The position numbers were made by a program, and so were the translations under genes. DNA of 19,345 nt, taken from contig JAYODI010000098.1 in the NCBI GenBank assembly GCA_038279365.1, positions 1 through 19,345 on the forward strand. Reading direction: 5' to 3'. Source of the DNA: Candidatus Latescibacterota bacterium (GTDB taxonomy: Bacteria > Latescibacterota > UBA2968). Position 1 is the first letter of the stretch, and the number at the start of each line of letters is the position of its first letter. Positions 1,314-16,462 of the stretch are shown piece after piece. A model generated the notes under the pieces. It was not told the origin of the DNA. It did not search any database and saw only the letters and a list, made by a program, of their open reading frames with translations.

Positions 1314-1348
1314 GTTGACTCCAGGCAAAGGCTTGGTTAAAACGGTGT

Positions 1349-2185
1349 TTAAATAACGAGCGAAAGCGAAATAATGGCAATGCCCACACCGGCAATGGCA
1401 GGGCGTGCAAGGTGTTCTTTCCAATAGAAATGGGCAAAGAGGTTGTCGAGTAAAACGACGGAACAGCCGAGCACAGGAAAAAACAATGTGCCGGGTAAAT
1501 GGCTCAGTGCGGTCATTATCACACACAGGGCCACGGCATTATAAAGGCCAATAAAAATGCCGAGTGTGATGGCTGGCATTTGTGGTTTATGTTTTTTGAA
1601 GGCGATGACGCCACAGCCTAAGAGACCTGCGGTGGTTCCGATGATCAATAAGATTTGTAGGTTCAGGGCATCGAGGCCATTGTAGTGTACTGAACGCAAA
1701 CACGTGTGGCTAATGCCTTGCCAGAGGCAAACGAGAATCAAGAGCCCAAAGGCTTTGGGGCCTTTAATATGATGGGTTTGGCCTGAGTGGGAGGTCATGA
1801 GGGCCAGTGCAAAAAGTGCAAGAATGAGGCCTATAAATTGCAAGGGTGCCATGGGCTCGCCCCAAAGGTAAATGCCGAGTGCGATGGGCACAATAATAGA
1901 CATTCTAAATGCGGTGAGTATGGGACCTACGGGTGCGATGGTGAGGGCATAGTTCATTAAAAGCATGGAACTGATGAATACTGTGCCTGTTACAAGGCCT
2001 GTGTAAATAGCCCCCGTGGGGAATATCCACGCATCGGTTATAAGGAGGTAAATGGCGATAGATAGTGCAACGGTGATGTAGTTTGCACTGACGACAACGG
2101 GGGCATAATATCCGCGTCTTTGTGCCAACTTGAAAAATTGGATAAAACCAAAATCGAGAATGATAGATAAAAAGAGCCAGATCAT
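1349..2185 (-). CDS. EamA/DMT family transporter, paralogue 2 (278 aa)
   Basis: About 10 hydrophobic segments with DMT-like motifs (IYLWGEP, HFYWKEHL). Start set at ATG 2185 (MIWLFLSII) by colinearity with the adjacent paralogue. Confidence 0.85.
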   Translation of the reverse strand: MIWLFLSIILDFGFIQFFKLAQRRGYYAPVVVSANYITVALSIAIYLLITDAWIFPTGAIYTGLVTGTVFISSMLLMNYALTIAPVGPILTAFRMSIIVPIALGIYLWGEPMAPLQFIGLILALFALALMTSHSGQTHHIKGPKAFGLLILVCLWQGISHTCLRSVHYNGLDALNLQILLIIGTTAGLLGCGVIAFKKHKPQMPAITLGIFIGLYNAVALCVIMTALSHLPGTLFFPVLGCSVVLLDNLFAHFYWKEHLARPAIAGVGIAIISLSLVI

Positions 2186-2199
2186 AACACGTTGCTTCT

Positions 2200-3036
2200 T
2201 TACATGACAAGGGTAATGGCCACAACGGCCAAACAGACGCCCGCAATGGCAGGGCGGGTGAGGTATTCTTTCCAGAAGAAATGTGCAGAAAGATTGTCGA
2301 GCAAGACGACGCTGCATCCCACAATGGGGAAATAAACGGTGCCGGGTACCACACTCAGTGCGGTGAGCACAACAGACAGTGCCAGCGTGTTGTAAAGTCC
2401 AATTCCTAAGCCCACATAAACATCTTTGGGTCGAAAAGTTTGACGGCGGATGAGGACAAAAATCCAACCCAAGGTGCCAGCGGTTGCGCCAATGACCATG
2501 AGGACGTTGAGGCGATAAGGGTCGAGGCCCGCATAATGCACCCAGCGCATACACGTCATGCCCACGCCTTGAATGATGAAAATGGTGAAGATCATGACAA
2601 ATGCTTTGGTGCCCCGTAATGGATGTGTGCTCGATTTGTTGTGGGTCATGAGAGCCAATGCCACAATGGCGAGCGTAATGCCTGTGAGTTGGATCAGGGT
2701 AATGGGTTCTGCCCAAATGATCACGCTAAGCGCAACGGGTAAGAGCATCGACAAACGGAAGGCCGTGATGACGGGGGCGACACCTGCAACCGTGAGGCCA
2801 TAGGTCATCACGAGCATGGAGGCGATAAAGGTGATGCCAATGCAGATACCGATTTTGAAGATGTCTGGCGTGAAGACCCATTGATTGGTGAGATATAAGA
2901 ATATAGCCAGTGCTAAGGAGAGTGCCAAATAGTTGGCAGAGACCACCACGGGCGCATATTCACCGCGTCGTTGTGAGCCTTTGAAGAGTTGCACAAACCC
3001 AAAACTGAAGAAGATGGCGATAAAAACCCAGTGCAA
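2200..3036 (-). CDS. EamA/DMT family transporter, paralogue 1 (278 aa)
   Basis: Hydrophobic multi-TM protein with IIWAEP and FFWKEYL motifs. TTG start preceded by AGGT. Aligns colinearly with 1349..2185. Confidence 0.85.
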   Translation of the reverse strand: MHWVFIAIFFSFGFVQLFKGSQRRGEYAPVVVSANYLALSLALAIFLYLTNQWVFTPDIFKIGICIGITFIASMLVMTYGLTVAGVAPVITAFRLSMLLPVALSVIIWAEPITLIQLTGITLAIVALALMTHNKSSTHPLRGTKAFVMIFTIFIIQGVGMTCMRWVHYAGLDPYRLNVLMVIGATAGTLGWIFVLIRRQTFRPKDVYVGLGIGLYNTLALSVVLTALSVVPGTVYFPIVGCSVVLLDNLSAHFFWKEYLTRPAIAGVCLAVVAITLVM

Positions 3037-3113
3037 AAGATACCTGCTTAAAAAGAGTGCGTGATGTGAAATGGTAAAGGCCGAAAGATAAGGATTTTTT
3101 ACAGTGGGTGCAT

Positions 3114-3145
3114 AAAAAAAGCCGATCTTTTTGATCGGCTTTTTT
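3114..3145 (-). terminator. Intrinsic terminator downstream of hicA (potentially bidirectional)
   Basis: A7-GCCGATC-TTTTT-GATCGGC-T6, a perfect 7-bp GC-rich stem flanked by A and T tracts, 5 nt after the hicA stop. Confidence 0.85.
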
Positions 3146-3150
3146 ACAGA

Positions 3151-3339
3151 TTAGCCTATTTCTGGTATGGACAATCCACGACAAATTTTCTTGATCAATA
3201 AATCTGGTATTTCTGTGTGCCGAGGAACTGTTTCAATTTGTCCTGTTTGGGGATTGGTCCATATAGAATGTGAGCGCCCTTCTCGTTTTAAGTAACACCC
3301 ATTTCTTCGTAAATGTTTTAGAAACGTGTTTCGCTTCAT
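3151..3339 (-). CDS. hicA: Type II toxin-antitoxin system HicA family toxin (62 aa)
   Basis: MKRNTFLKHLRRNGC..REGRSHSIW..VPRHTEI..KKICRGL matches the HicA dsRBD-like pattern including the G-x-S-H histidine. ATG 3339 overlaps the hicB stop as ATGA. Confidence 0.9.
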   Translation of the reverse strand: MKRNTFLKHLRRNGCYLKREGRSHSIWTNPQTGQIETVPRHTEIPDLLIKKICRGLSIPEIG

Positions 3340-3551
3340 TCTACGACCACAGTTCCACATACTGCATTGCTTGGTACACCTCGCAAACCATCTTCGCGTC
3401 GGTCTTCCAAGATTAACGAAATTGCGTCAGAGAGGCTTTGAAGGGATTCTTCTTTGGTTTTGCCTTGTCCGTTTGCACCGGGTATTTCTGGCGAATATGC
3501 AATAAACCAATCTCCATCTCGTTCAATGATATAGGAAAATTCATTTCTCAT
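3336..3551 (-). CDS. hicB: Type II toxin-antitoxin system HicB family antitoxin, short form (71 aa)
   Basis: IIERDGDWFIAYSPEIPGANGQGKTKEESLQSLSDAI is the typical HicB partial RNase H-fold N-terminal domain. AGGAG RBS upstream. Confidence 0.9.
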   Translation of the reverse strand: MRNEFSYIIERDGDWFIAYSPEIPGANGQGKTKEESLQSLSDAISLILEDRREDGLRGVPSNAVCGTVVVE

Positions 3552-3591
3552 TGAGGTCTCCTAACGGTAGGTGAATTTCATGCTTTCATAA

Positions 3592-3619
3592 AAAATCTTC
3601 AAAATTTACGTTCTGTCAA
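3592..3619 (-). promoter_or_regulatory. Putative sigma70 promoter of hicB-hicA
   Basis: Consensus -35 TTGACA (3619-3614), a 16-nt spacer and a weak -10 GATTTT (3597-3592), about 40 nt upstream of the hicB ATG. Confidence 0.45.
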
Positions 3620-3633
3620 TCATAAAATGATGA

Positions 3634-3933
3634 TTATTTTAACTTTTCGTTGACACTGTTGATCTTATCTTCCATCGTTTGAACGCGGTCTGTGCGCGTG
3701 CCCACTTTGATGGTGGTGGTAATGCGTGGTGCGCCCATTTCATGAACGGTTTCGTGGCATTTTTTGATGGCGGCAAAAACGGCATCCCACTCGCCTTCTA
3801 TGTTGGTGCCATAAGCGTGTAGGTGTGTTTTTAGGCCCGCATCAGAGAGCACTTTTTCACAGGCAGCAACGTGTTTAGAAACGGACACGCCTACGCCCAT
3901 AGGTACCACACAAAGATCGACCATCACGTTCAC
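3634..3933 (-). CDS. MTH1187/YkoF-like thiamine-binding family protein (99 aa)
   Basis: DLCVVPMG..SVSKHVA..HAYGTNIEGEWD..GAPRI..GTRTD..MEDKINSV pattern. GTG start at 3933 with a GAGGT RBS. Confidence 0.88.
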   Translation of the reverse strand: MNVMVDLCVVPMGVGVSVSKHVAACEKVLSDAGLKTHLHAYGTNIEGEWDAVFAAIKKCHETVHEMGAPRITTTIKVGTRTDRVQTMEDKINSVNEKLK

Positions 3934-3947
3934 AACAAACCTCGCTT

Positions 3948-4925
3948 TCAATGTTCTTTTGGTGCTGATGTTTCGGGTTGAATGGGTGAAGAAATAGGAA
4001 TATCTGAGGTTTCGATATCTGGTTGTGGCAATGGTTCTGGGATATGGTTTCGAAATAAGATCCAATACATGGCCACGGCTGTCAAAATATAGGAAAAGAA
4101 TCCAAGCCAAGCATGAAGTTCTTGAGCGGTGAATACGGTGTTGGTTGCCAAGGCTGAGCCTTCGTAGTTGGTGAAAATACCCGTAAATACGTTGTTGGCG
4201 ACGTGAATGCCAATGGCCAGTTCAGCACCGTTGTCTTTGAGTGTGATGAGGGTGAGAAAGGCACCCCACGCAAAGTATGCCAGCCAAGAGGGCAAGCCGT
4301 GCTCAATCTCGGGATTGGCTGAGTGCAGAGCCATAAACCCAAGGCCATTGAGAAGGATGAGCATCAGGGAGTTGCGAATGAGATGGCCGAGTGCTTGCAA
4401 GAGGTAACCTCGAAACAAAAATTCTTCGGATGCCGCTTGAAACGGGATAAATACCAACACCAAAATAGCGAACGTATAGAACTGAGCAGGATCGAGCGTA
4501 TATGTATACGTGCCAGGATAAATGAGTTCTTCGATGATAACGCTCAAAATGATACATGCGATTTGCCATTTGAAGCCTTGCCATACACGGTGCCAACGAA
4601 TGGTTTTATAAGGTGTGATGAGGGATAAAAAAGGGCGGTGATGCAAGCGGCAAACAGTGAGCCAAATGCCTATGATGAGTGCAAAAAATGTGAGGCAAAG
4701 GGCGATAAAGTCTGGAATGGGACGCGACCCGTCCATGGGTTCTCTGTTGGGTGTTACAGATAAAAAGTCACTGCCAAATATAAGGGCAATGAAAATGAGA
4801 CTGCCCAAGAGCCAGATGCACCCTATGACGAAAAAACCGATAAGGTACATTCCCCAACGTGTTTTGCCTTGGTTGGCAAGGTCGAGAAAGGCTTGGCCCA
4901 TTTTTTCGGGTTGTGTGTTACTCAT
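3948..4925 (-). CDS. CPBP (CAAX/Abi) family intramembrane glutamic endopeptidase
   Basis: Multi-TM protein with all three motifs: EExxxR (SEEFLFRG), FxxxH (FMALH) and HxxNN (HVANN). Pro/acidic low-complexity C-terminal tail. Confidence 0.9.
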   Translation of the reverse strand: MSNTQPEKMGQAFLDLANQGKTRWGMYLIGFFVIGCIWLLGSLIFIALIFGSDFLSVTPNREPMDGSRPIPDFIALCLTFFALIIGIWLTVCRLHHRPFLSLITPYKTIRWHRVWQGFKWQIACIILSVIIEELIYPGTYTYTLDPAQFYTFAILVLVFIPFQAASEEFLFRGYLLQALGHLIRNSLMLILLNGLGFMALHSANPEIEHGLPSWLAYFAWGAFLTLITLKDNGAELAIGIHVANNVFTGIFTNYEGSALATNTVFTAQELHAWLGFFSYILTAVAMYWILFRNHIPEPLPQPDIETSDIPISSPIQPETSAPKEH

Positions 4926-4947
4926 CGCTTGTCCGGTCTGTATTGAT

Positions 4948-4983
4948 GCGTACTTTTCTTTTTTGATAAAAAAGAAAGACGCG
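4948..4983. terminator. AT-rich hairpin immediately downstream of the dehydratase gene (possible terminator or mRNA stabiliser)
   Basis: GCGT..TTTCTTTTTT-GAT-AAAAAAGAAA..ACGC inverted repeat. The stem is AT-rich and lacks a clear U-tail on the minus strand. Confidence 0.35.
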
Positions 4984-4985
4984 TT

Positions 4986-6131
4986 TTACCAATCGGCAAC
5001 ACTGCCATCGTTGTCGTAATAAAATTCACCACCGAGTTCTTCTTCGTAAAGGTTTATGTTTTGTTCGGCTTCTTCAGGAATCAGCTCAAAACCCAAACCG
5101 GGTTTGGTGGGCAGGTCGATGTGCCCGTCTTTGACCACCCAAGGTTCTTTTAATAAGCCTTCGCCCAAACCGGCATCGACTTGTTCTTGGATGAGAAAAT
5201 TGGGGACGGCGGCATCCACTTGCATACACGACGAGAAGGCAACGGGGCCAATGGCACAGTGTGGCATAATGTGCATGTAATAGACTTCGGCCATGTTGGC
5301 AATGCGTTTGAGTTCCGATATGCCACCTGCATGTGATCCATCGGGCTGAATGTAGGCCACAACGTTTTTCTCAAAGATTTGGCGAAATTCCCAACGTGAG
5401 AGGAGGCGTTCTCCGGTGGCGATGGGGAAGGGCACGTGATCGGACACATGTTTGAGCGCGTCCACGTTTTCTTGGGGCACAGGCTCTTCCACAAACATGG
5501 GGCGCATGCCTTTGATTTCGTGGCAGACTTCAACGGCGAGCGCGGGTGTCATTTTGCCGTGGAAATCGAAGCAGATTTCGCAATCGTCACCGACCCATTC
5601 GCGCATGGTGTAGGCGCATTTAACAAAACGGTCGATGGTGGCTGGGGGTTCGTGGGCACGCCATTTGCCACCGGGGCCCGACTTGAAGGCTTTGTAGCCG
5701 CCTTTTTTTTGAAGCATCTCAAGGCGTGCACGCGATGATTCAAGGGCTTTTTCAGACATGTCGCGAATACCCCAGTGTGCGTAGACACGTATTTTGTTGC
5801 GCACGGCACCACCCAAGAGTTGATAGGTGGGCACATCAAAGTGTTTGCCCGCAATGTCCCACAAGGCTTGGTCAATGCCCGAAAGTGCGGTCATGAGCAC
5901 ATTGCCACCGCGAAAAAAAGCCGAGCGATAGATGTGTTGCCAATGGTGTTCAATGGTGAGTGGGTCTTTGCCGATGAGATAATCGGCGAGTTCTTCTACG
6001 GCACCCCACGTGCTTTTGGGTTTGCCCTCAAGGGTGGTTTCTCCCCAGCCAACAATGCCTGTGTCGGTGGTGATTTTGATGAGGCGCATTCTTTTGCGGG
6101 GGTAGAATTGTTCTATTTTGGCGATTTTCAT
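4986..6131 (-). CDS. dgoD: Galactonate dehydratase-like enzyme (mandelate racemase subgroup, enolase superfamily)
   Basis: GWGE, SGIDQALWDIAGK, LLGG, metal ligands in DFHG / EEP / GER, QPD, PHC and a C-terminal DGSVADW characteristic of DgoD. AGGAG RBS. Exact substrate not established. Confidence 0.8.
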   Translation of the reverse strand: MKIAKIEQFYPRKRMRLIKITTDTGIVGWGETTLEGKPKSTWGAVEELADYLIGKDPLTIEHHWQHIYRSAFFRGGNVLMTALSGIDQALWDIAGKHFDVPTYQLLGGAVRNKIRVYAHWGIRDMSEKALESSRARLEMLQKKGGYKAFKSGPGGKWRAHEPPATIDRFVKCAYTMREWVGDDCEICFDFHGKMTPALAVEVCHEIKGMRPMFVEEPVPQENVDALKHVSDHVPFPIATGERLLSRWEFRQIFEKNVVAYIQPDGSHAGGISELKRIANMAEVYYMHIMPHCAIGPVAFSSCMQVDAAVPNFLIQEQVDAGLGEGLLKEPWVVKDGHIDLPTKPGLGFELIPEEAEQNINLYEEELGGEFYYDNDGSVADW

Positions 6132-6252
6132 GGTGACGTGCTCCTATAAAATTTTTGAAAATTTGGCCTTTGTACAAATCGTAACGCCATGCTTGAGGTA
6201 CTGTTGGTGCAGGTCCTTAACGCAGGGTGCTGTTGAAGAAGGATTTGGGGAA

Positions 6253-6281
6253 TAGACACGATACTTGTCAGATCGTATCTA
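6253..6281. terminator. Hairpin downstream of the aldo-keto reductase gene
   Basis: TAGACACGAT-9nt-ATCGTATCTA, a 10-bp stem with one G-U pair on the minus-strand RNA and no good U-tail. Confidence 0.3.
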
Positions 6282-6290
6282 AGCAAAATA

Positions 6291-7226
6291 TTATTCAACC
6301 CCAAGCGTTTCTATTTCTTGCACGAGGTCATTGGGCAATGGGCCTTGTTCTGCTGCGCGTACACATTCTTCAATTTCTGCGGGTGTTTTTGCGCCAATGA
6401 TGATGGTATCCATTTCACTTTGGCCCACCATAAAACGAACGCCGAGTGTGGCCAATGACATGCCGCTTTCGGCTTGGAGGGCAAAGATTTTTTTGTAGTT
6501 TTCCAAGAGTTCGGGTGTCATCCAGTTGGGTGGTGATTCCAATATTTTGGGATTTGTAACGGCAAGGTTACGGGCGAAGATGGCACCGATCATGCCCACG
6601 CAGCCCTTTTCTTTGGCAATGGGGAGGGCTTGGCGTGCACCTCGGCGAATGAGGTCGTAGTTAAAAGCGAGTAGAAATGTGTTTACGTCAACATCCTTTA
6701 ATACACGGCTCATATTGTCTGCTGTGTTTCCTGAAATGCCGATGAAACGACAGCGTTCTTCTTTTTGAAGTTGACGCAGAGTTTGGAGTGCTGGGGCGTT
6801 GTTGAAGCTGTATTCAATGTCGGGATTGAGACGACCTTGGTGAGATGTGTCTGTTGACCACCAGTGGTGAAAGTCGGCTTCGTGGAGTTGGAGGGTGTCT
6901 ACGTAATCACGGCGCAAGAGGCGCAGGTTTTCTTCGTATTGGGTGACGAGTGCTTCTGGTGAGTGAAACCGTGACGGGTTTTTAAAGTAGCCGAGTTTTG
7001 TGGCCAAGAGGTAACCGTCTTTTTTGTCTTTGAGGCCTTCGCCTAAAACGGCTTGAGAGACGCCATTGCAATACATAGGTGAGGTGTCGAAATAAGTGAT
7101 GCCAAGGTCTAAGGCTTTGTGAACGGTGGCGACGCCGTCGGCAAATGAGCTGGCAGTGAGATAGGCTCCTCCTAAGCCAATGATGGATGTTTGTTCGCCG
7201 GTTTTTCCGTAGGGTCTTTGTTGCAT
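6291..7226 (-). CDS. Aldo/keto reductase (resembles L-fucose/L-galactose dehydrogenase-type AKRs)
   Basis: GKTG..SIIGLG, GITYFDTSPMY (catalytic D and Y), LATKLG (K), LQLH (H), RFIGIS, IIIGAKTPAEIEE. AAGGA RBS. Confidence 0.9.
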   Translation of the reverse strand: MQQRPYGKTGEQTSIIGLGGAYLTASSFADGVATVHKALDLGITYFDTSPMYCNGVSQAVLGEGLKDKKDGYLLATKLGYFKNPSRFHSPEALVTQYEENLRLLRRDYVDTLQLHEADFHHWWSTDTSHQGRLNPDIEYSFNNAPALQTLRQLQKEERCRFIGISGNTADNMSRVLKDVDVNTFLLAFNYDLIRRGARQALPIAKEKGCVGMIGAIFARNLAVTNPKILESPPNWMTPELLENYKKIFALQAESGMSLATLGVRFMVGQSEMDTIIIGAKTPAEIEECVRAAEQGPLPNDLVQEIETLGVE

Positions 7227-7246
7227 GGGTATCCTTAGGTGAGGGG

Positions 7247-7295
7247 TTAGCAGTTAGCAGTTAGCAGTCAGCGATCAGCAGTCAGCGATCAGCAA
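7247..7295. repeat. Heptamer tandem repeat, 7 units (TTAGCAG x3, then TCAGCGA/TCAGCAG variants)
   Basis: Units read directly: ttagcag ttagcag ttagcag tcagcga tcagcag tcagcga tcagcaa. Confidence 0.95.
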
Positions 7296-7317
7296 AACCG
7301 AAAAAGCAAAATGGTGT

Positions 7318-8400
7318 TTAGAAACGATAGAGGTTCATTGCATTTTCGACTTTCACCATACGTTCTAAGTTTGGGCTGATTTTGATGGGAAATGCGCGGT
7401 CGGGTGCGTCAAAATCCCAGTGGGGATAGTCGGTGGCAAAGAGCAAACGGTCGGGTTGGTCATAGTGTTCTAAGAATTGGTTGAAGTGTTCGGGTTTTTC
7501 GGGTTCTTCCATCGGTTGTGTGGTGACCCACACGTGGTTGCGAATATAGTGTGAAGGTGGGTGTTGTACGTGTGGCACTTCGTCTTTGAGTTGGGCGTAG
7601 GTGCGATCTAATCGCCAAGAAAGGGCGGGCAACCAAGCCATGCCGCCTTCAATGAGGACAAGTTTGAGATTGGGGAATTGATCAAAGACGCCTTCAAAAA
7701 TGAGACTGATGACGTGGTGTTGAAAGGCTTGGGCCATGCCGGCGTGGTATTCGATGTAGTAGGAGGGCCAGCCTGTGCCGGTAATGGGGTGACCGCCATT
7801 GCCACCGCCAAAGTGTATGCCCACGGGGAGGTTGTTTCGTTGGGCGGCTTCGTAGAGGGGCCAGTATTTTCGGTTGCCCAATGGGGCGGATGTAAAGGTG
7901 GGCAAAAGGACTTGAACGAAACGTGGGTCTTGGGCCATTCGGTCAATTTCTTCGGCAGCCAAGTTGCCATTTTCAAAAGCGACAATGAGTGAGGCGCGCA
8001 AACGGGGTTCGGGGTCGAGCCATTCGGCGGCTTGACAGGTGTTGATGGCACGGGCAAATGCGGCATCGTATTCGGGCAGTTGGTTGCGAATGGGTGTGAG
8101 GGTGTTGAGAATGCCCAAATCGATGTTCCAAGCGTCTAAGAGTTGTTCGCGTAAAAAAGGCAAGTTTGATCCTGGGCTTCCACCACCAGGTGGCCAAGCG
8201 TCTGTGCGATGGGCACCGGGTTGGCTTTTGGGGTAGGTGGTGCCACCAAATCCTCTGCGCCCAAACCGTTCGTGATAGGTGCGCCATTTGTCGGGAATGA
8301 ATTTGTTAAGTGCTGGGCGCAAGCCGTTGTGAATGTCGCAGTCGATGAGTTGGATGTCTTGTGCACTTGGAGTGGTGATTGTGGCGCTGGTGCTTGACAT
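7318..8400 (-). CDS. Amidohydrolase_2 family protein; candidate dinuclear oxygenase catalytic subunit (AibH2/PtmU3-like), 360 aa
   Basis: DCDIH, GIHFGG, LIEGG, TTQPMEEP and ATDYPHWD motifs. Start at ATG 8400 with a GGAG RBS; the longer ORF start lies inside a tandem repeat. Confidence 0.85.
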   Translation of the reverse strand: MSSTSATITTPSAQDIQLIDCDIHNGLRPALNKFIPDKWRTYHERFGRRGFGGTTYPKSQPGAHRTDAWPPGGGSPGSNLPFLREQLLDAWNIDLGILNTLTPIRNQLPEYDAAFARAINTCQAAEWLDPEPRLRASLIVAFENGNLAAEEIDRMAQDPRFVQVLLPTFTSAPLGNRKYWPLYEAAQRNNLPVGIHFGGGNGGHPITGTGWPSYYIEYHAGMAQAFQHHVISLIFEGVFDQFPNLKLVLIEGGMAWLPALSWRLDRTYAQLKDEVPHVQHPPSHYIRNHVWVTTQPMEEPEKPEHFNQFLEHYDQPDRLLFATDYPHWDFDAPDRAFPIKISPNLERMVKVENAMNLYRF

Positions 8401-8430
8401 GGGTGACTCCGGTTGAATGGCAATGGTGAG

Positions 8431-8500
8431 ACGGCAGACGGCAAACGGCAAACGGCAAACGGCAAACGGCAAACGGCAAACGGCAAACGGCAGACGGCAG
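8431..8500. repeat. Heptamer tandem repeat ACGGCAR x10 (7 consecutive perfect ACGGCAA)
   Basis: Units counted at 8431, 8438, ... 8494, with degenerate units on both sides. Confidence 0.97.
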
Positions 8501-8534
8501 ACGTGGCGATGTGAATGGTGATTGTTTTATTTTT

Positions 8535-8644
8535 AGTCCGCAGGACTTTTCTTATCGTAGCACCGAAATTTATTCCGGTGCGGTTGGTCGAGCAATGACC
8601 GAATTAATTTTTCAAGCCACATTGTTCTGGTGCGGTCGAGCAAT
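8535..8644. repeat. Degenerate REP/REPIN-like palindromic element
   Basis: AGTCC-GCA-GGACT hairpin (8535-8547); GTAG leading into palindrome GCACCGAAAT-TT-ATTCCGGTGC (8557-8581); degenerate inverted copy 8598-8620; direct repeat GGTCGAGCAAT at 8586 and 8634. Confidence 0.45.
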
Positions 8645-8659
8645 TTGTCGAATGTATTT

Positions 8660-9688
8660 TCAAAACCCATAAAAATCACGTGCATTATCGCACATGATTT
8701 TCTGTGTTTGCGTGTCTGATAAACCAAGTGGCAGTGTGTGGTCGTGATCGTGTGGGTAATCGCTGGCATAGACGATGAGGTCGTCGGAGCCGATTTGTTC
8801 GATGACTTGGAGGAGCGATTTGCTTTTGGGTGGTGCGTCGGTTGGGGTGAGGGAGAAGCGCAGGTGTTTGCGAATGTAGGTGGAGGGTGGTTGTGTGAGC
8901 CAAGGGACTTCGCGTCTGATGCCTTTCCAGTCTTTGTCGAAGCGCCACATAAGTGCGGGCAACCAGGTCCAGCCGCTTTCGAGTAAAATCATTTGTAAAT
9001 TTGGAAAGTGATTGAAAATGCCACCGCTGATGATGCTTAAAATTTGCGATTGGAAGACACTGGCCATGCCGGCGTATTCTTCAATGTAGAAGGTGGGCCA
9101 TCCTGTGGATGTGGCGGGTGTGCCAGGGACACCGCCAAAGTGAATGGCAATTTTGAGGTTGCAATCGCTGGCTGCTTGATAAATGGGGTGATAGTTGCGA
9201 TTGCCATACGGTAAAGGTGCGCGAACAGGGAGGATGACTTGCACAAATTCGGGGCGATTGCCTATGCGGCGAATTTCTTCGGCGGCGAGTTCGGGGTATT
9301 GAGGCGGAACGACAATGGATGCCCGTAGGCGTGGTTCTTGGTTGAGCCATTCGTTCAGTTGCCAATCGTTCACGGCTTGTGAGAGCGCAAGTGCGGCATC
9401 GGGATTGTGAATGCCATCTACGGCATAGAGGCAGTTGAGAATGCCGATATCGGTATTGGGTATATCCAGGGCTTGTTCACGGAGTGTTTCCAAGTTTGAT
9501 CCAGCAGATCCGCCCCCTTTGGGGTGGGTGCCTGATTGTGCGGTGACGTTTGCGCCAAGCGGATAATATTTGTCGGTGGCACCGGCAAAACCTGTGAGTT
9601 GGATTTGGTCTATCCAGTAGTCAGAGAGATAGGGATAGAGGGCTTTGGTGTTCGGCACAGTGTTGTGGATGTCGGTGTCAATTTTCAT
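8660..9688 (-). CDS. Amidohydrolase_2 family protein; candidate partner subunit of a dinuclear oxygenase (AibH1-like), 342 aa
   Basis: DTDIH, NDWQLNEWL..EPRLRASI, AIHFGG, GWPTFYIEEY, LLESG, ASDYPHDH. ATG at 9688 overlaps the GH95 3' end by 11 nt. Confidence 0.85.
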   Translation of the reverse strand: MKIDTDIHNTVPNTKALYPYLSDYWIDQIQLTGFAGATDKYYPLGANVTAQSGTHPKGGGSAGSNLETLREQALDIPNTDIGILNCLYAVDGIHNPDAALALSQAVNDWQLNEWLNQEPRLRASIVVPPQYPELAAEEIRRIGNRPEFVQVILPVRAPLPYGNRNYHPIYQAASDCNLKIAIHFGGVPGTPATSTGWPTFYIEEYAGMASVFQSQILSIISGGIFNHFPNLQMILLESGWTWLPALMWRFDKDWKGIRREVPWLTQPPSTYIRKHLRFSLTPTDAPPKSKSLLQVIEQIGSDDLIVYASDYPHDHDHTLPLGLSDTQTQKIMCDNARDFYGF

Positions 9689-11942
9689 TGTTGAGTGGAT
9701 GAATTTGAAGGTTGTGATCGATGACGTAGGCTTTTTTGGCATGGGTTTTAAATTTGAGAAATTTGTCGCGATAGCGCACGGTTTGCACACCTGTTTTGGT
9801 GGTGTAGAGGATGGCCTGAGTAAGGTGGCCTTTGTTCCACGTGATATCGAGTTCTATGCCACCACGCGCGCGTAGGCCTTCAATGTTGCCATTGGGCCAA
9901 GCAGAGGGCAATGCGGGTAAGAGGTGAATATCTCCGGTGTGATTTTGCAAGAGGAGTTCGGCCATACCTGCGGTTGCGCCAAAGTTGCCATCTATTTGGA
10001 AAGGGGGATGTGCGTCAAACAGATTGGGATAGGTGCCGCCGCCTTTCATTTGGGTGCTGGTTTCTCCTACAAGGCGCAGTTGGCGTTGGAGGAGGGTGTG
10101 AGCGCGGTCGCCATCGCGAAAACGCGCCCAAAAGTTGAGTTTCCATCCCATAGACCAGCCTGTGCCTTCGTCGGTGCGAAATTCGAGTGATTTTTTGGCG
10201 GCTTCAAAAAGGTCGGGTGTTTTTTCTGGCGTAATTTCTTTGCCGGGGTGTAGGCCCCACAAGTGTGACACGTGGCGATGTGTGTTTTCTGGGTCATCTA
10301 CATCTTCAAGCCATTCTTGCAATTGTCCCAAGCGACCAATTTGGTGGGGGGCAATGCGCTTTCGTTTGGCAATGAGGGTTTTGCAAAACTGGGTGTCGAT
10401 ACGCAAGGTGCGGCAAGCATCTATACAGTTGGTGAAGAGGTCGCGAATAATTTGATGATCCATCGTTGGGCCAGCAACCAATCCGCCGTTTTCGGGGGAG
10501 TTGGAAGGGGTACTGATGAGGTGACCCGTGCGTGGGTCTTCGATGAGTTGGTCCACAAAAAATTGTGCGGCCCCTTTCATGAGCGGATAGGCTTTGTTGC
10601 GTAAGAAGTCTCTGTCGCGGGTATATTCATAATGCCACCACAAATGTTGGCACAACCACGCGCCACCTGTGGGCCAAATGCCGTGGTTGCTGGCATTGAT
10701 GGGGGCACTGCCTCGCCAAATGTCTGTGTTGTGATGAAGCACCCACCCACGCGCACCATAGTGTGAGCGCGCGGTTTTTTGACCTGTGATGGCCACTTCT
10801 TCAAGCATATCAAAAAGAGGTTGGTGGCAGGGCGATAAGTTGCACGATTCGGCAGGCCAATAGTTCATTTCGGTATTGATGTTGACGGTCCACTTGCTGT
10901 CCCAAGGTGGTTCAAGGTGGTCGTTCCAGATGCCTTGGAGGTTGGCTGGCTGACTGCCTGCGCGCGATGAGGCGATGAGTAGGTAACGACCGTATTGGAA
11001 ATAAAGCGCTAAGAGGTGGGGGTCTGAACGTTCGGGCAATTTGGCAAGGCGTTGGTTGGTCGGCTCGTCAATGGGGTTGCCAAGATGAATGGACATCCGC
11101 CTAAATAAAGATTGATGGTCTTGGAGGTGTTCTTCGAGCAGGGAATCGAAGGTTTTGTTTTGTAAGGCGCGAATGGTTTGGCTGCAGCGTTTTGTGGGAT
11201 CTGTGGTGAGTTTTTTAAAGTCTTTAAAATTGGTGGCCGCTGTGAGGATGAGGGTAACTGCATCGGCATCTTGGATGTATAAAGCATCTTCGTTTGCGGC
11301 AATGTAGCCATTTTTGACACGTGTGAGTAACCGTGCTTCAAAAGCCATGGGGTTGCGGGCGACTTTTCCCGTAAGTGATATTTGCTCATCTTCGAGCACT
11401 TGGTGCTCAATGCGTGCGTGGGGGCTGTCGAGTGATGCTGTAAAGGTGAGTTGGTTGGGTTTGTTGGTCGATAGGTGTATGACAATGGCTTGCGCTGGGT
11501 TGCTGGCAAAGACCTGTCGGGTATAGATCACGTCATTGACCTGATAGGTGGTGGTGGCAATGCCTGTATCGAGATTGAGGTCGCGATAGTAGTTTGTAAT
11601 ATCTTCGTGATCGGCAAAGGACAAACGCAAATTGCCACAGGGTTGGTATGCCTTTTGACGTTTGGGATTGCCCATGAAATATTTGAAAGCGAGCTTTTCG
11701 GCTTGTTCTTGTTTGCCATCAAAGAGCAGTTGGCGAATTTGGGGGAGTTGCTTAACGGCACTTTTGCGATGGTAGTCATGGGGGCCACCCGTCCAGAGGG
11801 TGTCTTCATTAAATTGTATGCGTTCATTTTCCACCTGCCCAAAGACCATCGCGCCTAAACGACCACATCCAATGGGTAGGGCCTCTACCCATTGCTCGGC
11901 AGGTTTGGTGTACCAGAGTTTGAAATTGTCCCATTGGGTCAT
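9678..11942 (-). CDS. Glycoside hydrolase family 95 (alpha-1,2-L-fucosidase / alpha-L-galactosidase-like), no signal peptide
   Basis: KLWY..PA..WVEALPIG.GRLGAMVFG, NEDTLWTG, FQYGRYLLIASSR, ANLQGIWN, NINTEMNYW, SNSPEN, HRHVSHL and HPPFQIDGNFG, all hallmark GH95 motifs. Confidence 0.95.
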   Translation of the reverse strand: MTQWDNFKLWYTKPAEQWVEALPIGCGRLGAMVFGQVENERIQFNEDTLWTGGPHDYHRKSAVKQLPQIRQLLFDGKQEQAEKLAFKYFMGNPKRQKAYQPCGNLRLSFADHEDITNYYRDLNLDTGIATTTYQVNDVIYTRQVFASNPAQAIVIHLSTNKPNQLTFTASLDSPHARIEHQVLEDEQISLTGKVARNPMAFEARLLTRVKNGYIAANEDALYIQDADAVTLILTAATNFKDFKKLTTDPTKRCSQTIRALQNKTFDSLLEEHLQDHQSLFRRMSIHLGNPIDEPTNQRLAKLPERSDPHLLALYFQYGRYLLIASSRAGSQPANLQGIWNDHLEPPWDSKWTVNINTEMNYWPAESCNLSPCHQPLFDMLEEVAITGQKTARSHYGARGWVLHHNTDIWRGSAPINASNHGIWPTGGAWLCQHLWWHYEYTRDRDFLRNKAYPLMKGAAQFFVDQLIEDPRTGHLISTPSNSPENGGLVAGPTMDHQIIRDLFTNCIDACRTLRIDTQFCKTLIAKRKRIAPHQIGRLGQLQEWLEDVDDPENTHRHVSHLWGLHPGKEITPEKTPDLFEAAKKSLEFRTDEGTGWSMGWKLNFWARFRDGDRAHTLLQRQLRLVGETSTQMKGGGTYPNLFDAHPPFQIDGNFGATAGMAELLLQNHTGDIHLLPALPSAWPNGNIEGLRARGGIELDITWNKGHLTQAILYTTKTGVQTVRYRDKFLKFKTHAKKAYVIDHNLQIHPLNNEN

Positions 11943-11945
11943 GGT

Positions 11946-12749
11946 TTAGGTTCCTTGTTCGACATGAGTGGTTAAACCGCCGTCTACAACGAGGTTTTGA
12001 CCACTGATATATCCTGCTTCGTCAGAGGCCAAAAAGAGGGCCGCATATCCAATGTCTTCGGGATGGCCCGATTGCTTGAGGCGTGGGCGTGTGTCGGGTT
12101 GTGTGGGTGTGGTAGGTGGGGGGTGAGGTGCTTGTGTCACATTAGGATCATAAGCATAATTGGGTTCTAATTGGTCACTGTTTTTGCCCAATTGGGTGCG
12201 AATGGCACCGGGGCTGATGGTGTTGATGCGAATGTTTTGGTTGGCATATTCAAAGGCAGCCTGGCGTGTAAATCCAAACATACCGGCCTTGGATGTGGCA
12301 TATGCACTGTAATTTTTCCAAGCAAACATGCCTTGCACAGAGGCGATGTTGACAATAGATCCCCCCCCGCGTGTGATCATATGGGGGATGGCTTCGTGGC
12401 AAGTGCGGTAAATGCTGGACAGGTTGACATCTAATACGCGTTGCCAACGATGGGGCTCGGTGTTGGTAACTGTGCCAGTGATGTCAACGCCGGCATTGTT
12501 GATCAAAATATCGAGTCCACCAAAGTGTGTTATGGTTTGGGCGATGAGGTTGGCCACGGAGGTGTCACTGCTGACATCGGTCTCGATAAAAATGGCCTGA
12601 TCTGATTGAGATGAAAGTTGGATGCCCTTTTCAATGTCGCGGTCGGCTATGACCACGGAGGCTCCTTCTTTTAAGAAGATTTCGACGGTTGCACGCCCAA
12701 TGCCATTGGCACCACCAGTCACAATGGCCACTTTGTTTTGAAGTCTCAT
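11946..12749 (-). CDS. SDR family NAD(P)-dependent oxidoreductase
   Basis: TGGANGIG, NNAG, catalytic S and YATSK, SPG, VDGG. Asp at the end of beta-2 (IADRD) suggests NAD. GGAG RBS. Confidence 0.93.
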   Translation of the reverse strand: MRLQNKVAIVTGGANGIGRATVEIFLKEGASVVIADRDIEKGIQLSSQSDQAIFIETDVSSDTSVANLIAQTITHFGGLDILINNAGVDITGTVTNTEPHRWQRVLDVNLSSIYRTCHEAIPHMITRGGGSIVNIASVQGMFAWKNYSAYATSKAGMFGFTRQAAFEYANQNIRINTISPGAIRTQLGKNSDQLEPNYAYDPNVTQAPHPPPTTPTQPDTRPRLKQSGHPEDIGYAALFLASDEAGYISGQNLVVDGGLTTHVEQGT

Positions 12750-12767
12750 GAGTGTTCTCCAAAATAA

Positions 12768-12808
12768 AATATAGATTATACTTTGAATGTTGATCCAATA
12801 TAGAGTAT
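12768..12808 (-). promoter_or_regulatory. Possible internal promoter/operator upstream of the SDR-GH95-amidohydrolase genes
   Basis: AT-rich 71-bp spacer with a perfect TATAAT on the minus strand (12780-12775) and an 11/12 direct repeat AATATAGA(T/G)TAT at 12768 and 12797. No -35 match at 17 nt. Confidence 0.35.
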
Positions 12809-12820
12809 TGTATGTTCATA

Positions 12821-13825
12821 TTACGGCAGTGGTGCAGACACGGCAATAAGATCGTGACGATTGTAGTCGAAGGCAAAATGAATCTGTGACTCGTCAGCTT
12901 CAACAAAGCCATCTGGATATGAGAGCCGCCCCGGAAAATCTGTGATAAGGTGTTTGTAATCCCAAGTTTTCATATCGTTGTCGGATATCCAAAGAGACAG
13001 TGGGTTGCGCATCCGTGCATTTGAATTGGGGTTGTGTATGAGCACAATGCGTTCATCTTTTAAACGATGCAATCGAAATTTACTGCCGGGGTTTGGAATT
13101 TGGGTGCTTTGCCACGGCGTCCACGAATGACCTTGATCTGTCGATTCGGAAGATGAGAGACGGCCTGTGCCATCGGCCCGACAAAGCATGATCAGGCGTC
13201 CATCGCTTAATTCTGTGAGGTTGTTTTCATTCCAACCCGCTTGTGGGCCAATCAATTCTGACTTTTTCCACGTTTGGCCTTGGTCTTGGCTGATGAGTGT
13301 GCCGTTGAGGCCTTTTTTGTTGGAACCGTCTTTGAGGTGGGATGGAAATGGGTCTTCTTGCACGTCATAGGTTTGGAAGGGCAAATACCAAGTCCCCCAG
13401 GTGCTGATATAAAGGTTGCGCACAAAGGTGCGCCTGGGGAGCGGTTTAAAGGGTTTTGGAGCGGACCACGTGTGTCCATTGTCTGTGCTGGTGAGGGTGA
13501 AACATTGCCAGTCTTCAAAAAAGCCCAAATGTGAGTGACCAAAAATGGTGATGGTATTTTGGTGCACCATAACTTCTGAGAGCAAACAGCCCCGGTCTTC
13601 AAATTGAAGCAGTGTTTTGGGTGCCGACCATGTTTCTCCTTTGTCGGTTGAGCGGCAGATGGCAATGTGGTTTTCCCTTTCGGGTTCACTGTTGCCACCT
13701 GTCATAAAAATAATGGCCCATGATCCATCGGGCATTTGACGCAGGGCTTGGTCGCACACACAGTGGTTGCCTGGGGTGCCTTTATAGACGTGAACAAGGC
13801 GATCTTTTGGTTTGTGTAATGACAT
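12821..13825 (-). CDS. Sialidase-like BNR/Asp-box beta-propeller protein
   Basis: Asp-boxes STDKGETW, STDNGHTW, SQDQGQTW, STDQGHSW and SDNDMKTW; RNPL and SYP motifs. No obvious signal peptide. Confidence 0.85.
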   Translation of the reverse strand: MSLHKPKDRLVHVYKGTPGNHCVCDQALRQMPDGSWAIIFMTGGNSEPERENHIAICRSTDKGETWSAPKTLLQFEDRGCLLSEVMVHQNTITIFGHSHLGFFEDWQCFTLTSTDNGHTWSAPKPFKPLPRRTFVRNLYISTWGTWYLPFQTYDVQEDPFPSHLKDGSNKKGLNGTLISQDQGQTWKKSELIGPQAGWNENNLTELSDGRLIMLCRADGTGRLSSSESTDQGHSWTPWQSTQIPNPGSKFRLHRLKDERIVLIHNPNSNARMRNPLSLWISDNDMKTWDYKHLITDFPGRLSYPDGFVEADESQIHFAFDYNRHDLIAVSAPLP

Positions 13826-13947
13826 ATTGATCCTATGGATGATGCTTCAAGATTGTTCTTGTTCTATGAAAATGGAATGGATAAGTTGGTGTATGTGATC
13901 CGATGATTCCAATAACTCTTTTTTAAAATTTATGTGAGGATGTGCCG

Positions 13948-15630
13948 GTGCCACAATCTAAATTAGAACCCAAATTGCTCACGGTGATTAAAGAAGGTTA
14001 TTCTTCAACCCAGTTTCGTCAAGATGTGATTGCTGGCCTTATTGTGGGCATTGTGGCCTTGCCGTTGGCCATTGCATTTGCCATTGCTTCGGGGGTGAAA
14101 CCCGAGCAAGGGTTGTATACGGCGGTGATTGCTGGGTTTATTATTTCGGCATTGGGTGGCAGTCGGGTGCAAATTGGTGGTCCTACGGGTGCATTTATTG
14201 TGATCGTTTATGAAATTGTGCATCAATATGGCTACGAAGGTTTGGCTACGGCCACATTGATGGCAGGTATTTTGTTGGTGATTATGGGCATTGCGCGGTT
14301 GGGTGCGGTCATTCAATTTATTCCATACCCACTAACCATTGGCTTTACGGCTGGCATTGCATTAATTATTTCGGTTGCCCAAGCACGCGATTTTTTGGGC
14401 TTAAAAATGGCTACTGTACCTGGCGATTTTTTGGAAAAATGCGTGGCCTATTACGAACACCTTGACACGTGGAACCCCGAATCGCTGGGCATTGGAGTTT
14501 TTACTGTGCTGATTGTTTGGTTTTGGCCTCGTGTTACAAGGCGGGTACCTGGTTCTTTAATTGCCATTTTTGGCACCACAGCCCTTGTGCACAGTTTTGG
14601 TTTGTCGGTTGAAACCATTGGCAGTCGTTTTGGAGAGGTACCTTCTTCGCTGCCGATGCCCCATTTGCCCAATTTGGAATGGGAACATGTGAAACATCTT
14701 TTTTCTCCCGCACTGTCCATTGCTCTTTTGGGAGGCATCGAGTCTTTGCTGTCGGCGGTTGTGGCTGATGGCATGACGGGGCGCAGGCACCGTTCGAATA
14801 TGGAAATTATCGCACAAGGGGTGGCCAATATTGCGTCACCCATTTTTGGTGGCATACCCGCCACAGGTGCGATTGCGCGAACGGCTACAAACATCAAAAG
14901 TGGTGGGCGCACACCCATTGCGGGCATGGTACACGCCATCACGTTGTTGTTCATTATGGTTTTTGTTGGCAAGTGGGCCGCGCTTATTCCGTTGGCTACG
15001 TTGGCCGGTATTTTATTGGTGGTGGCTTATAATATGAGTGAGTGGCGTTTGTTTGTAAAATTGCTGCACAGTCCTAAAAGTGATGTGGCCATTATGCTCA
15101 ACAGTTTCTTTTTAACGGTTTTTGTTGATCTGACCATTGCCATTCAAGTAGGGGTGGTGCTGTCGGCTTTTTTGTTTATGCGGCGTATGTCTGAAGTGAC
15201 TCAAATTGGTTACAAAACATCGGTCTTGGAAGAAGAAGAGGATGATGTTTTTGATGCACAATCTATTGGGCGACGAACTCTGCCTGATGGTGTGGCGGTA
15301 TTTGAAGTGTATGGTTCGTTTTTCTTTGGTGCGGCAGAAAAGTTTAAAACGGCCATTACTCAAATTGAGAAACAACCGCGGGTGCTCATTTTGCGTTTGC
15401 GCCATGTGTTGGCCATTGACGCAACAGCGTTACATGCCATTGAAGGTTTATATGAGCGGATTCACCACGATGGTGGTGTTTTGTTGCTTTCGGGCATTCA
15501 TGCCCAACCATTGGTGGCGATTGAGCGCGCAGGTTTGTTTGATCTCATTGGTGAAGACAATATTGTGGCCAATATCGATTTGGCAATTAAGCGCGCCGAA
15601 GAATTTTTAGAAACGGCAGAACAGATATAG
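13948..15630 (+). CDS. SulP/SLC26 family anion transporter with STAS domain (DauA/YchM-like)
   Basis: DVIAGLIVGIVALPLAIAFAIASG, GGSRVQIGGPTGAF, ESLLSAVVADGM, TGAIARTATN, and C-terminal STAS (GSFFFG, IDATAL). GTG 13948 preferred because it lies 7 nt after GAGGA. Confidence 0.93.
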   Translation: MPQSKLEPKLLTVIKEGYSSTQFRQDVIAGLIVGIVALPLAIAFAIASGVKPEQGLYTAVIAGFIISALGGSRVQIGGPTGAFIVIVYEIVHQYGYEGLATATLMAGILLVIMGIARLGAVIQFIPYPLTIGFTAGIALIISVAQARDFLGLKMATVPGDFLEKCVAYYEHLDTWNPESLGIGVFTVLIVWFWPRVTRRVPGSLIAIFGTTALVHSFGLSVETIGSRFGEVPSSLPMPHLPNLEWEHVKHLFSPALSIALLGGIESLLSAVVADGMTGRRHRSNMEIIAQGVANIASPIFGGIPATGAIARTATNIKSGGRTPIAGMVHAITLLFIMVFVGKWAALIPLATLAGILLVVAYNMSEWRLFVKLLHSPKSDVAIMLNSFFLTVFVDLTIAIQVGVVLSAFLFMRRMSEVTQIGYKTSVLEEEEDDVFDAQSIGRRTLPDGVAVFEVYGSFFFGAAEKFKTAITQIEKQPRVLILRLRHVLAIDATALHAIEGLYERIHHDGGVLLLSGIHAQPLVAIERAGLFDLIGEDNIVANIDLAIKRAEEFLETAEQI

Positions 15631-15651
15631 CCTGATTTATAGGTCAAAATT

Positions 15652-15702
15652 AAAAACCGTATCTCCCGAGCAAATATACAAGCCTGAGGTGCGGTTTTTT
15701 TT
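15652..15702. terminator. Probable bidirectional terminator between convergent genes
   Basis: AAAAACCGTATCTC ... GAGGTGCGGTTTTTTTT inverted repeat (two G-U pairs on + RNA) with T and A tails, between two convergent stops. The loop is long, about 20 nt. Confidence 0.6.
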
Positions 15703-16222: not shown

Positions 16223-16233
16223 AATATCCTCTC

Positions 16234-16455: not shown

Positions 16456-16462
16456 ATTGCTT

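Follow-up and report, generated by a model that had tools for sequence, protein, structure and literature searches.

What do two adjacent members of the amidohydrolase_2 family (PF04909) do in the middle of a bacterial run of sugar genes? Contig JAYODI010000098.1 of a Candidatus Latescibacterota bacterium, whose positions 1 to 19,345 form the stretch of DNA analyzed here (the window), encodes such a pair between a glycoside hydrolase of family GH95 and an aldo/keto reductase (AKR). The locus is an annotation trap, since the logic of filling in a pathway says L-fuconolactonase, whereas the sequences say oxygenase. We propose that the two proteins, P0003 and P0002, probably form an AibH1H2-type heteromeric monooxygenase of the amidohydrolase-related oxygenase (ARO) superfamily, which would use a Mn/Fe cofactor and act on a sugar or sugar acid derived from fucose or galactose. 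The elements on which this proposal turns are as follows, with lengths in amino acids (aa):

7318..8400, minus strand: AibH2-like gene for the predicted catalytic subunit (P0003; 360 aa; PF04909, 1.3e-39)
8660..9688, minus strand: AibH1-like gene for the predicted partner subunit (P0002; 342 aa; PF04909, 3.1e-30)
8401..8659, no strand: spacer between the two subunit genes, with the heptamer tandem repeat ACGGCAA x10.4 at 8431-8503

P0003 starts at an ATG at position 8400, within an open reading frame (ORF) of 7318..8472, and P0002 at an ATG at 9688, within an ORF of 8660..9790. The Pfam matches to PF04909 span the full length of both proteins, which are 42% identical over 345 residues (E 7e-92), a similarity far above chance that, as judged from sequence, makes them paralogues. 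P0003 carries the motifs IDCDIH (D22, H24), GIHFGG (H196), LIEGG (E251), and DYPHWD (D324, H327, D329), and P0002 carries IDTDIH (D6, H8), IHFGG (H183), LLESG (E237), and DYPHDH (D310, H313, H315).

Which enzymes of this large family does the pair resemble? In sequence searches of the PDB, P0003 matched AibH2 best (6m1w_B, 1.6e-89; cross-match to AibH1, 1.7e-49), and P0002 matched AibH1 best (6m1w_A, 4e-77; cross-match to AibH2, 6e-56). After AibH2, P0003 matched the homomeric oxygenases 8SM7, 8SM6, 8SM9, and 8SM8 (3e-86 to 2e-52). PtmU3 came next for both proteins (~1e-12) and decarboxylases were weaker, the decarboxylase- or hydratase-type matches of P0003 lying between 1.7e-11 and 4e-3. A profile made from a 19-sequence alignment of P0003 and searched against the PDB up to E = 10 matched AibH2 at 1.7e-115, 8SM6-9 at 4e-109 to 4e-76, AibH1 at 4e-74, PtmU3 at 6.5e-20, decarboxylases at 5e-19 or weaker, and LigJ at ~1e-3. 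No lactonase was among the PDB matches up to E = 10, either with the single sequence (36 matches) or with the 19-sequence profile (48 matches). Fold comparison gave the same reciprocal ranking as sequence. The AlphaFold models of both proteins are barrels of alternating strands and helices whose best PDB fold matches are AROs: the P0003 model (predicted local distance difference test score, pLDDT, 79.5) is closest to AibH2 chains, with template modeling (TM) scores of 0.81-0.82 and 42% identity, and the P0002 model (pLDDT 85.8) to AibH1 (TM 0.90, 38% identity).

The metal ligands can be followed residue by residue. As described in portions of PMC7782822, AibH2 binds its metals through D25, H27, H211, E265, D337, and H340, with D342 hydrogen-bonded via a water. 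All six ligands and D342 align with identical residues in P0003 (D22, H24, H196, E251, D324, H327, and D329, respectively), the pair H196/E251 standing for the His and bridging Glu that complete the metal 1 ligands. For AibH1, the same portions list D24, H26, H201, E255, and D328, with H331 conserved and the acid equivalent to D342 absent. P0002 keeps these five ligands of a mononuclear site as D6, H8, H183, E237, and D310; it also has H313, and H315 stands where the acid would be.

These residues can be read against the rules for the superfamily. Excerpts of PMC13154177 give its motifs as an N-terminal D-x-H and a C-terminal D-x-P-H-x-[D/E], with at least ~200 residues before the latter, and state that D-x-H together with D-x-P-H-x-D is found in none of the characterized hydrolases or decarboxylases of this fold. 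Both of our proteins have the D-x-H on the first beta strand (P0003, D22-I-H24, on model strand 19-23; P0002, D6-I-H8, on strand 2-8). The C-terminal motif is present in P0003 as D324-Y-P-H327-W-D329, whereas P0002 departs from it with D310-Y-P-H313-D-H315, as does AibH1. Since P0002 has a His at the last motif position, it is not classed as a dinuclear oxygenase subunit itself. Among 22 proteins resembling AibH1 (H1-like), that position is His in 14, Gln in six, Trp in one, and Asn in one; the partner proteins are consistently without the acid required for a second metal, which counts as indirect evidence for a heteromer.

If P0003 is an ARO, which metals would it use? According to Table 1 of PMC13154177, as excerpted, the low-potential class that uses manganese is recognized by three residues: the one inside D-x-H is hydrophobic, the one at the end of strand 2 is hydrophilic, and the one inside P-H-x-D is aromatic. 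P0003 has I23, N99, and W328 at these positions, N99 being assigned from alignment to the SfbO Thr and from the end of strand 2 in the model rather than from that paper's own alignment. Since these three residues fit the rule, a Mn/Fe cofactor is expected. P0003 also retains F330, at a position that the same excerpts tie to docking of the Rieske ferredoxin. The P0003 ligands, motif residues, rule residues, and F330 are invariant in 19/19 homologues (57-91% identity).

Taken on the sequences, both the enzyme class and the division of labor between the two proteins are well supported. An earlier note on this DNA had described two adjacent homologous genes whose products begin with D-x-H and had quoted the motifs listed above, all of which we found, in two PF04909 proteins. 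It had also assigned 7318..8400 to a catalytic subunit and 8660..9688 to its partner; this assignment agrees with our finding that P0003 fits both ARO motifs and that P0002 ends its motif in His, without the acid, like AibH1. As a check the note had named clustering with AibH and PtmU3 rather than with decarboxylases or lactonases, and the PDB searches came out on the side of AibH2, AibH1, and PtmU3.

The closest known system is AibH1H2 of Rhodococcus wratislaviensis (PDB 6M1W, 8FUL-8FUO), which, like the window, has two adjacent PF04909 paralogues, one with a full set of dinuclear ligands plus the second-sphere Asp and the other with five ligands and no terminal acid. Unlike the window, it has a co-encoded Rieske ferredoxin (AibG) and reductase (AibF) and belongs to an amino-acid catabolic cluster; in the window no electron-transfer gene was found, and the pair lies within a run of GH95, aldose dehydrogenase, and aldonate dehydratase genes. 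SfbO (8SM6) and its relatives 8SM7, 8SM8, and 8SM9 resemble P0003 in fold, ligands, D-x-H, D-x-P-H-W/F-D, and the kinds of residue at the metal-rule positions; they differ in being homotetramers without an H1-like partner, each with a Rieske ferredoxin neighbor, and the sulfonate-binding R232 and R235 of SfbO are H219 and M222 in P0003. The diiron, high-potential AROs PtmU3 and DitZ share the superfamily and the ligand positions of P0003 but are distant from it (8e-13 and 4e-5) and act in terpenoid metabolism; in excerpts of PMC13154177, the residue in the middle of their D-x-H is hydrophilic, and Glu replaces the last Asp in PtmU3. The cog3618 lactonases (L-fucono-1,5-lactonase and LigI) share PF04909 with our pair and are likewise encoded between genes for an aldose dehydrogenase and an aldonate dehydratase; they differ in having no ARO motifs, according to those excerpts, and did not appear in our PDB searches up to E = 10.

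Do the two proteins work together? P0003 has 6151 homologues at E ≤ 1e-20. A scan of a genome collection with the patterns DYPHWDF and LGxR[KR]YW.. confirmed 591 relatives, and the locus counts given here cover the best 80 (44-61% identity), which come from Thermomicrobiales, other Chloroflexota (including Caldilineaceae), Poribacteria, Latescibacterota, Opitutaceae, Actinomycetota, and many Alphaproteobacteria. In 69 of the 80 loci, the gene resembling AibH2 (H2-like) is immediately preceded by an H1-like gene on the same strand and within 500 nucleotides (nt), so that the pairing of paralogues seen in AibH1H2, which had been proposed for the window, recurs among its relatives. The H1-like gene is directly downstream in three loci and 4 kb off in one, and its position is undecidable at a contig end in two. 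Of 78 genes classed as H1-like, 72 end the C-terminal motif in Gln (46), His (24), Asn (1), or Trp (1); the remainder comprise five ending in Asp (DFPHFD, a separate third paralogue) and one with no motif.

A FastTree phylogeny of 93 rows (P0002, P0003, and every such gene from 45 of the 80 loci) gathers 48 DYPHWD proteins in one clade with support 97. Within the tree, P0003 pairs with an Opitutaceae protein, beside one from Thermomicrobiales, and P0002 is sister to a Thermomicrobiales H1-like protein (support 96), so that each nests among its own kind. At the interface, AibH2 D342 contacts AibH1 K282, as reported in sections of PMC12141560; these residues correspond to D329 of P0003 and K252 of P0002, each invariant in its own alignment. 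On this sequence evidence, P0002 and P0003 probably form a heteromer.

Ten homologues are long (631 aa or more), and six of these ten contain two PF04909-like halves. In P0244 both halves are complete, the first with DYPHWD and the second with DFPHVH. The proteins P0244-P0249 are single predicted polypeptides of 650-800 aa that join an H1-like to an H2-like half; P0244 has the H2 half before the H1 half, and in P0247 and P0249 the H1-like half precedes the H2 half. These could be genuine fusions, or gene calling could have read through from one gene into the next.

In five Caldilineaceae loci, a third, divergent ARO paralogue (DFPHFD) lies ~1 kb downstream of the H1/H2 genes and forms its own clade with support 100. 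The Rieske gene follows this paralogue instead of the H2-like gene in these loci, and in the two that are annotated (L017 and L019) an MscS-like gene precedes it. The coordinates of the third paralogue within each locus are

L014, 4057-5121
L016, 3777-4841
L017, 12101-13165
L019, 12076-13140
L021, 4962-6026

What might the enzyme act on? The pair belongs to a minus-strand run of genes that extends from 13825 to 4986 and in which no gap exceeds 259 nt. In order of transcription it encodes a BNR_2 protein, a short-chain dehydrogenase/reductase (SDR), the GH95 enzyme, P0002, P0003, the AKR, and a dehydratase. The five neighbors of the pair are

12821..13825, minus strand: BNR_2 (sialidase-like beta-propeller) protein, first gene of the run (PF13088, 8.6e-39)
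11946..12749, minus strand: SDR oxidoreductase, 3 nt upstream of the GH95 gene (PF13561, 1e-62)
9678..11942, minus strand: GH95 glycoside hydrolase, of the alpha-L-fucosidase/alpha-L-galactosidase family (PF22124, 1.2e-181; PF14498; PF21307)
6291..7226, minus strand: AKR, 91 nt downstream of the AibH2-like gene (PF00248, 7.9e-35)
4986..6131, minus strand: enolase-superfamily aldonate dehydratase, galactonate dehydratase type (NCBIfam NF010624)

The closest PDB entries to the GH95 protein are 7kmq (1.6e-226) and 4ufc (3.4e-210), with 2rdy also matched. Its stop codon (TGA, 9680-9678) and the start codon of P0002 (ATG, 9688-9686) lie within an overlap of 11 nt. All four best solved relatives of the AKR, matched over its full length, are L-galactose dehydrogenases (7ezi, 2.3e-23; 8scc, 7smi, and 9w6y, to 8e-21). 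The dehydratase scores 394.2 bits against a cut-off of 311 for the NF010624 "galactonate dehydratase" equivalog and matches PDB 3rr1 at 8.1e-78, and the SDR is above the cut-off of the NCBIfam "glucose 1-dehydrogenase" subfamily (222.2 versus 215), its PDB matches being generic. The similarity of the BNR_2 protein to sialidases is weak and partial (best, 8.1e-11). Judged by sequence, the GH95 enzyme, the AKR, the dehydratase, and the SDR outline an oxidative L-fucose/L-galactose pathway.

Since the pair overlaps translationally with GH95 and has an L-galactose-dehydrogenase-like AKR and a galactonate dehydratase on its flank, we take a fucose- or galactose-derived compound as the working choice of substrate, which is the least certain step of the proposal. 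The earlier note had pointed to the overlap with GH95, which we find to be 11 nt long at the start of the partner gene, had taken it to suggest action on a modified (e.g., methylated) sugar or aglycone, an idea that stays tentative, and knew of no description of such a context. No sugar context for the family appeared in the main text of PMC13154177 (searched for "sugar," "carbohydrate," and "glycos"; supplements not covered) or in literature searches, in line with that statement.

How might such an enzyme work? The product of 7318-8400 would be the catalytic subunit, with metal 1 held by D22 and H24 of the D-x-H on strand 1, H196, and the bridging E251, and metal 2 held by D324 and H327, while D329 would keep a water on metal 2. 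The product of 8660-9688 would be a non-catalytic partner that carries a single buried structural metal and stabilizes the catalytic loop. After reduction, the cofactor would bind O2, and the substrate, a small polar molecule, would be hydroxylated at an unactivated C-H bond, candidate reactions being hydroxylation of the methyl group of a deoxy-sugar or oxidative removal of an O-methyl group. A narrower proposal, which we regard as unlikely, is that an AibH1H2-type Mn/Fe hydroxylase without a Rieske protein was recruited to glycan catabolism, either to hydroxylate the methyl group of fucose or to O-demethylate methylated fucose or galactose. In the methyl-hydroxylation version, the target would be L-fucose (6-deoxy-L-galactose), its lactone, or its aldonate, and the reaction would supply the adjacent AKR and galactonate dehydratase with L-galactose-series intermediates made from the GH95 product.

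Several observations weigh against an AibH1H2-type enzyme with a fucose- or galactose-derived substrate, and electron supply is one of them. A 140-aa AibG-like Rieske protein (PF00355, 6.2e-18) accompanies the module in 59 of the 80 loci by tblastn. Its gene directly follows the H2-like gene in 46 (43 as scored plus L058, L063, and L075, where the hits start inside the H2-like alignment, 85-91 nt short of its end), sits beside another oxygenase gene of the cluster in eight, and is elsewhere in the locus in five. In the window, no Rieske gene was found by tblastn or by a six-frame hidden Markov model search (best E, 0.43), and domain scans found no reductase domain, so that the co-encoded ferredoxin AibG and reductase AibF of AibH1H2-type systems have no counterpart here. 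The window shares the absence of a Rieske gene nearby with one in four relatives (21/80 by tblastn, one of these loci being truncated), and in L001, its nearest relative pair (61-63% identity), a Rieske gene is directly downstream. The most likely electron donor would be a small Rieske ferredoxin whose gene lies outside the window, in another part of the genome. As for the proteins themselves, AibH1 Y287, which stacks on AibH2 F341, is I257 in P0002, so that an interface residue is lost; P0002 H183 is a His in only 17 of 22 H1-like sequences; and the invariance of DYPHWD in the 80 loci is partly built in, since DYPHWDF was a search pattern. The remaining points against it concern context, and with them come the rival explanations.

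The pair could be a heteromeric ARO of the same class whose substrate, for example an amino acid or amine, has nothing to do with the sugar genes, its adjacency to GH95 being the result of gene shuffling; we consider this the less probable reading, though one with an appreciable chance. GH95 and BNR_2 were found in none of the 80 related loci, and AibH1H2, the only characterized heteromeric member, hydroxylates the amino acid 2-aminoisobutyrate (as stated in portions of PMC7782822). The flanks of the module vary among relatives, and many are of amino-acid type: there were oligopeptide-type ATP-binding cassette (ABC) transporter genes in 23/80 loci, D-serine-dehydratase-like genes directly downstream in five, M20 peptidases in five, and also PALP and RidA genes. 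These context counts, like those that follow, are lower bounds, since ORF picking sometimes took antisense ORFs in high-GC loci (cluster 2 being antisense to the oxygenase). Elsewhere in the window are genes for a DegT aminotransferase, a PhyH dioxygenase, and an M14/AstE-like deacylase, and the heptamer repeats on either side of the AibH2-like gene could signal rearrangement. Against an unrelated substrate, the 11-nt overlap between the GH95 stop and the partner start speaks for co-translation, and the pair sits in the middle of the run, on the same strand, between GH95/SDR and AKR/dehydratase. Relatives in Chloroflexota, Poribacteria, Latescibacterota, and Actinomycetota also repeatedly have sugar-acid genes close by. 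In the 38 non-alphaproteobacterial loci, within 7 kb of the module, PhyH was present in 13, GFO/IDH/MocA in 11, keto-deoxy-sugar aldolases (HpcH, DHDPS, and RraA-like) in seven, MR_MLE in six, and CUT1 binding proteins in four, and the other 42 loci had oligopeptide-type ABC parts in 16, D-serine-dehydratase-like genes in five, and MR_MLE in one. In L053, a Latescibacterota locus without a Rieske gene, the next gene downstream encodes an HpcH aldolase, and genes for GFO/IDH/MocA, a CUT1 binding protein, and a sialate-esterase-like protein are close by. MR_MLE is the next gene downstream in L033, and in L002 and L018 sugar-type ABC transporter genes immediately precede the module. Such neighbors lend weak support, since these families are common in such genomes and the counts have no genome-wide background. 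A different function is also conceivable, namely that the pair, or the partner alone, is a sugar lactonase of the oxidative L-fucose/L-galactose pathway acting on a lactone made by the AKR or SDR. Since a PF04909 lactonase normally fills this gap in the pathway, lactonase is both the natural misannotation and the main functional rival. The bacterial L-fucose pathway does employ such an enzyme (PMC13406643, in part), and the context here is exactly its expected place, with GH95, the AKR, the galactonate dehydratase, and the SDR present and no other lactonase in the window by domain scans. The lack of a Rieske gene in the window would suit a lactonase, and a hydroxide-bridged dinuclear site could in principle hydrolyze a lactone. 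Lactone hydrolysis by L-fucono-1,5-lactonase (cog3618, PF04909) is reportedly metal-independent, a result ascribed to Hobbs et al. in 2013. Nevertheless, sequence, motifs, and fold speak against a lactonase, which we judge improbable. None turned up in PDB searches up to E = 10, in which oxygenases matched at 1e-115 to 1e-20; all oxygenase-specific motif residues are retained, including W328 (redox tuning) and F330 (ferredoxin docking); the Rieske gene is in place in L001; and the partner accompanies the catalytic protein in every context, not with sugar genes alone.

It is also conceivable that the two proteins are independent homo-oligomers, one a stand-alone ARO like SfbO and the other a separate mononuclear PF04909 enzyme. 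Homomeric AROs are known (8SM6-8SM9; PMC10811679), and a further point against a heteromer is that in five of the 80 loci the H2-like gene stands without an H1-like gene in its vicinity; the 259-nt spacer and the terminator-like hairpin at 8702-8671 also separate the two genes. The direct adjacency in 69 loci, the broadly parallel topology of the H1-like and H2-like parts of the tree, the occurrence of fused two-domain forms, and the conserved D329/K252 interface pair all argue for a joint complex. In addition, the AibH1 site is occluded, and AibH1 mutants render the complex insoluble (PMC10401708). Independent homo-oligomers are, in our estimate, a shade less probable even than a lactonase. 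Finally, the common Pfam family and the weak but significant matches of P0003 (1.7e-11 to 4e-3) might suggest a mononuclear, non-redox decarboxylase or hydratase of the ACMSD, LigW, gamma-resorcylate decarboxylase, or LigJ type. We give this idea almost no credence, since oxygenases match better by 60-100 orders of magnitude and the D-x-H and D-x-P-H-x-D motifs occur, by the excerpted account of PMC13154177, in no characterized hydrolase or decarboxylase of the fold. We thus retain a heteromeric Mn/Fe monooxygenase with a fucose- or galactose-derived substrate as the probable reading.

The DNA around the AibH2-like gene is unusual in its own right. The spacer of 259 nt (8401-8659) between the P0002 and P0003 genes is far longer than the H1/H2 spacers in related loci, as read from locus coordinates. 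Heptamer repeats border the AibH2-like gene on both sides (ACGGCAA x10.4; GTTAGCA/TCAGCGA), the second set (7246-7294) occupying the 91-nt gap before the AKR gene, and we wondered whether they could conceivably mark a lost Rieske gene. Tandem repeats of 7-8 nt occur in several intergenic gaps of the window (8431-8503, 7246-7294, 18116-18141, 16468-16485, and 19312-19341), and the ACGGCAA repeat, translated in frame, gives the ORF 7318..8472 an odd PFAVCRLPFAVCRL extension. A cyanobacterial origin, which intergenic heptamer repeats might suggest, found no support; the GH95 protein has a 99%-identical cluster labeled as a Candidatus Latescibacterota metagenome-assembled genome. The terminator-like hairpin at 8702-8671 (minus strand) has 14 pairs and a T-rich tail, lies over the last codons of the AibH1-like gene, and is a consensus match only; if real, it could make expression of the catalytic gene lower than that of its partner. 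Across the window, terminator-like sites numbered 24, versus 13.5 ± 3.7 in shuffles, and promoter-like sites showed no excess (10 versus 10.0 ± 2.9). An Rfam scan of the window found no RNA family.

Among the relatives, module flanks split by lineage. Alphaproteobacterial loci have oligopeptide-type ABC and LysR genes, with D-serine-dehydratase-like genes directly downstream, and the flanks in Chloroflexota, Poribacteria, Latescibacterota, and Actinomycetota hold PhyH (13/38), GFO/IDH/MocA, MR_MLE, and keto-deoxy-sugar aldolases. Farther from the pair, the minus strand of the window encodes two BNR_2 proteins (12821-13825 and 18189-19262), the PhyH dioxygenase (16463-17323), the M14/AstE-like deacylase (17352-18092), and the DegT aminotransferase, which is PseC/LegC-like (87-1316). 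Both BNR_2 proteins look cytoplasmic, and their sialidase matches are weak (8e-11, partial). This set hints at amino-sugar or nonulosonic-acid metabolism alongside the fucose/galactose genes. On the minus strand, an ORF of the HicA toxin family (PF07927, 1.9e-10) overlaps an upstream 71-aa ORF without a Pfam match (3151-3360 and 3336-3551); by position, the two are probably a HicAB-type toxin-antitoxin pair. On one side of these ORFs are genes for a CPBP protease and a thiamine-binding protein, and on the other are those for EamA transporters. A 173-aa ORF at 15701-16222 (minus strand), between a SulP/DauA-like transporter gene and a YwbE/DUF2196 gene, has no Pfam or NCBIfam match.

The family to which the pair belongs is already known, having been in print from 2019 to 2026, and its sugar-operon context here is undescribed. 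According to excerpts of PMC13154177, dinuclear oxygenases are now proposed to account for ~17,000 proteins that carry the annotation "amidohydrolase." Few AROs have a known native substrate, and in the manganese-using class AibH1H2 is the one member that does; SfbO and three relatives with solved structures remain orphans (PMC10811679). PMC13154177 mentions AibH1 twice and heteromers never in its excerpted text, and the sections of PMC12141560 that touch on the partner note only that it is not universal; the counts given here make the H1-like partner a regular feature of the clade. A pair inside a sugar operon is a testable clue to ARO substrates, and the operon context leaves a short list of candidates, all derived from fucose or galactose, that can be bought. 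If either version of the narrower proposal is correct, the pair would be the first ARO found to act on a carbohydrate and would represent a new enzymatic route for deoxy- or methyl-sugars.

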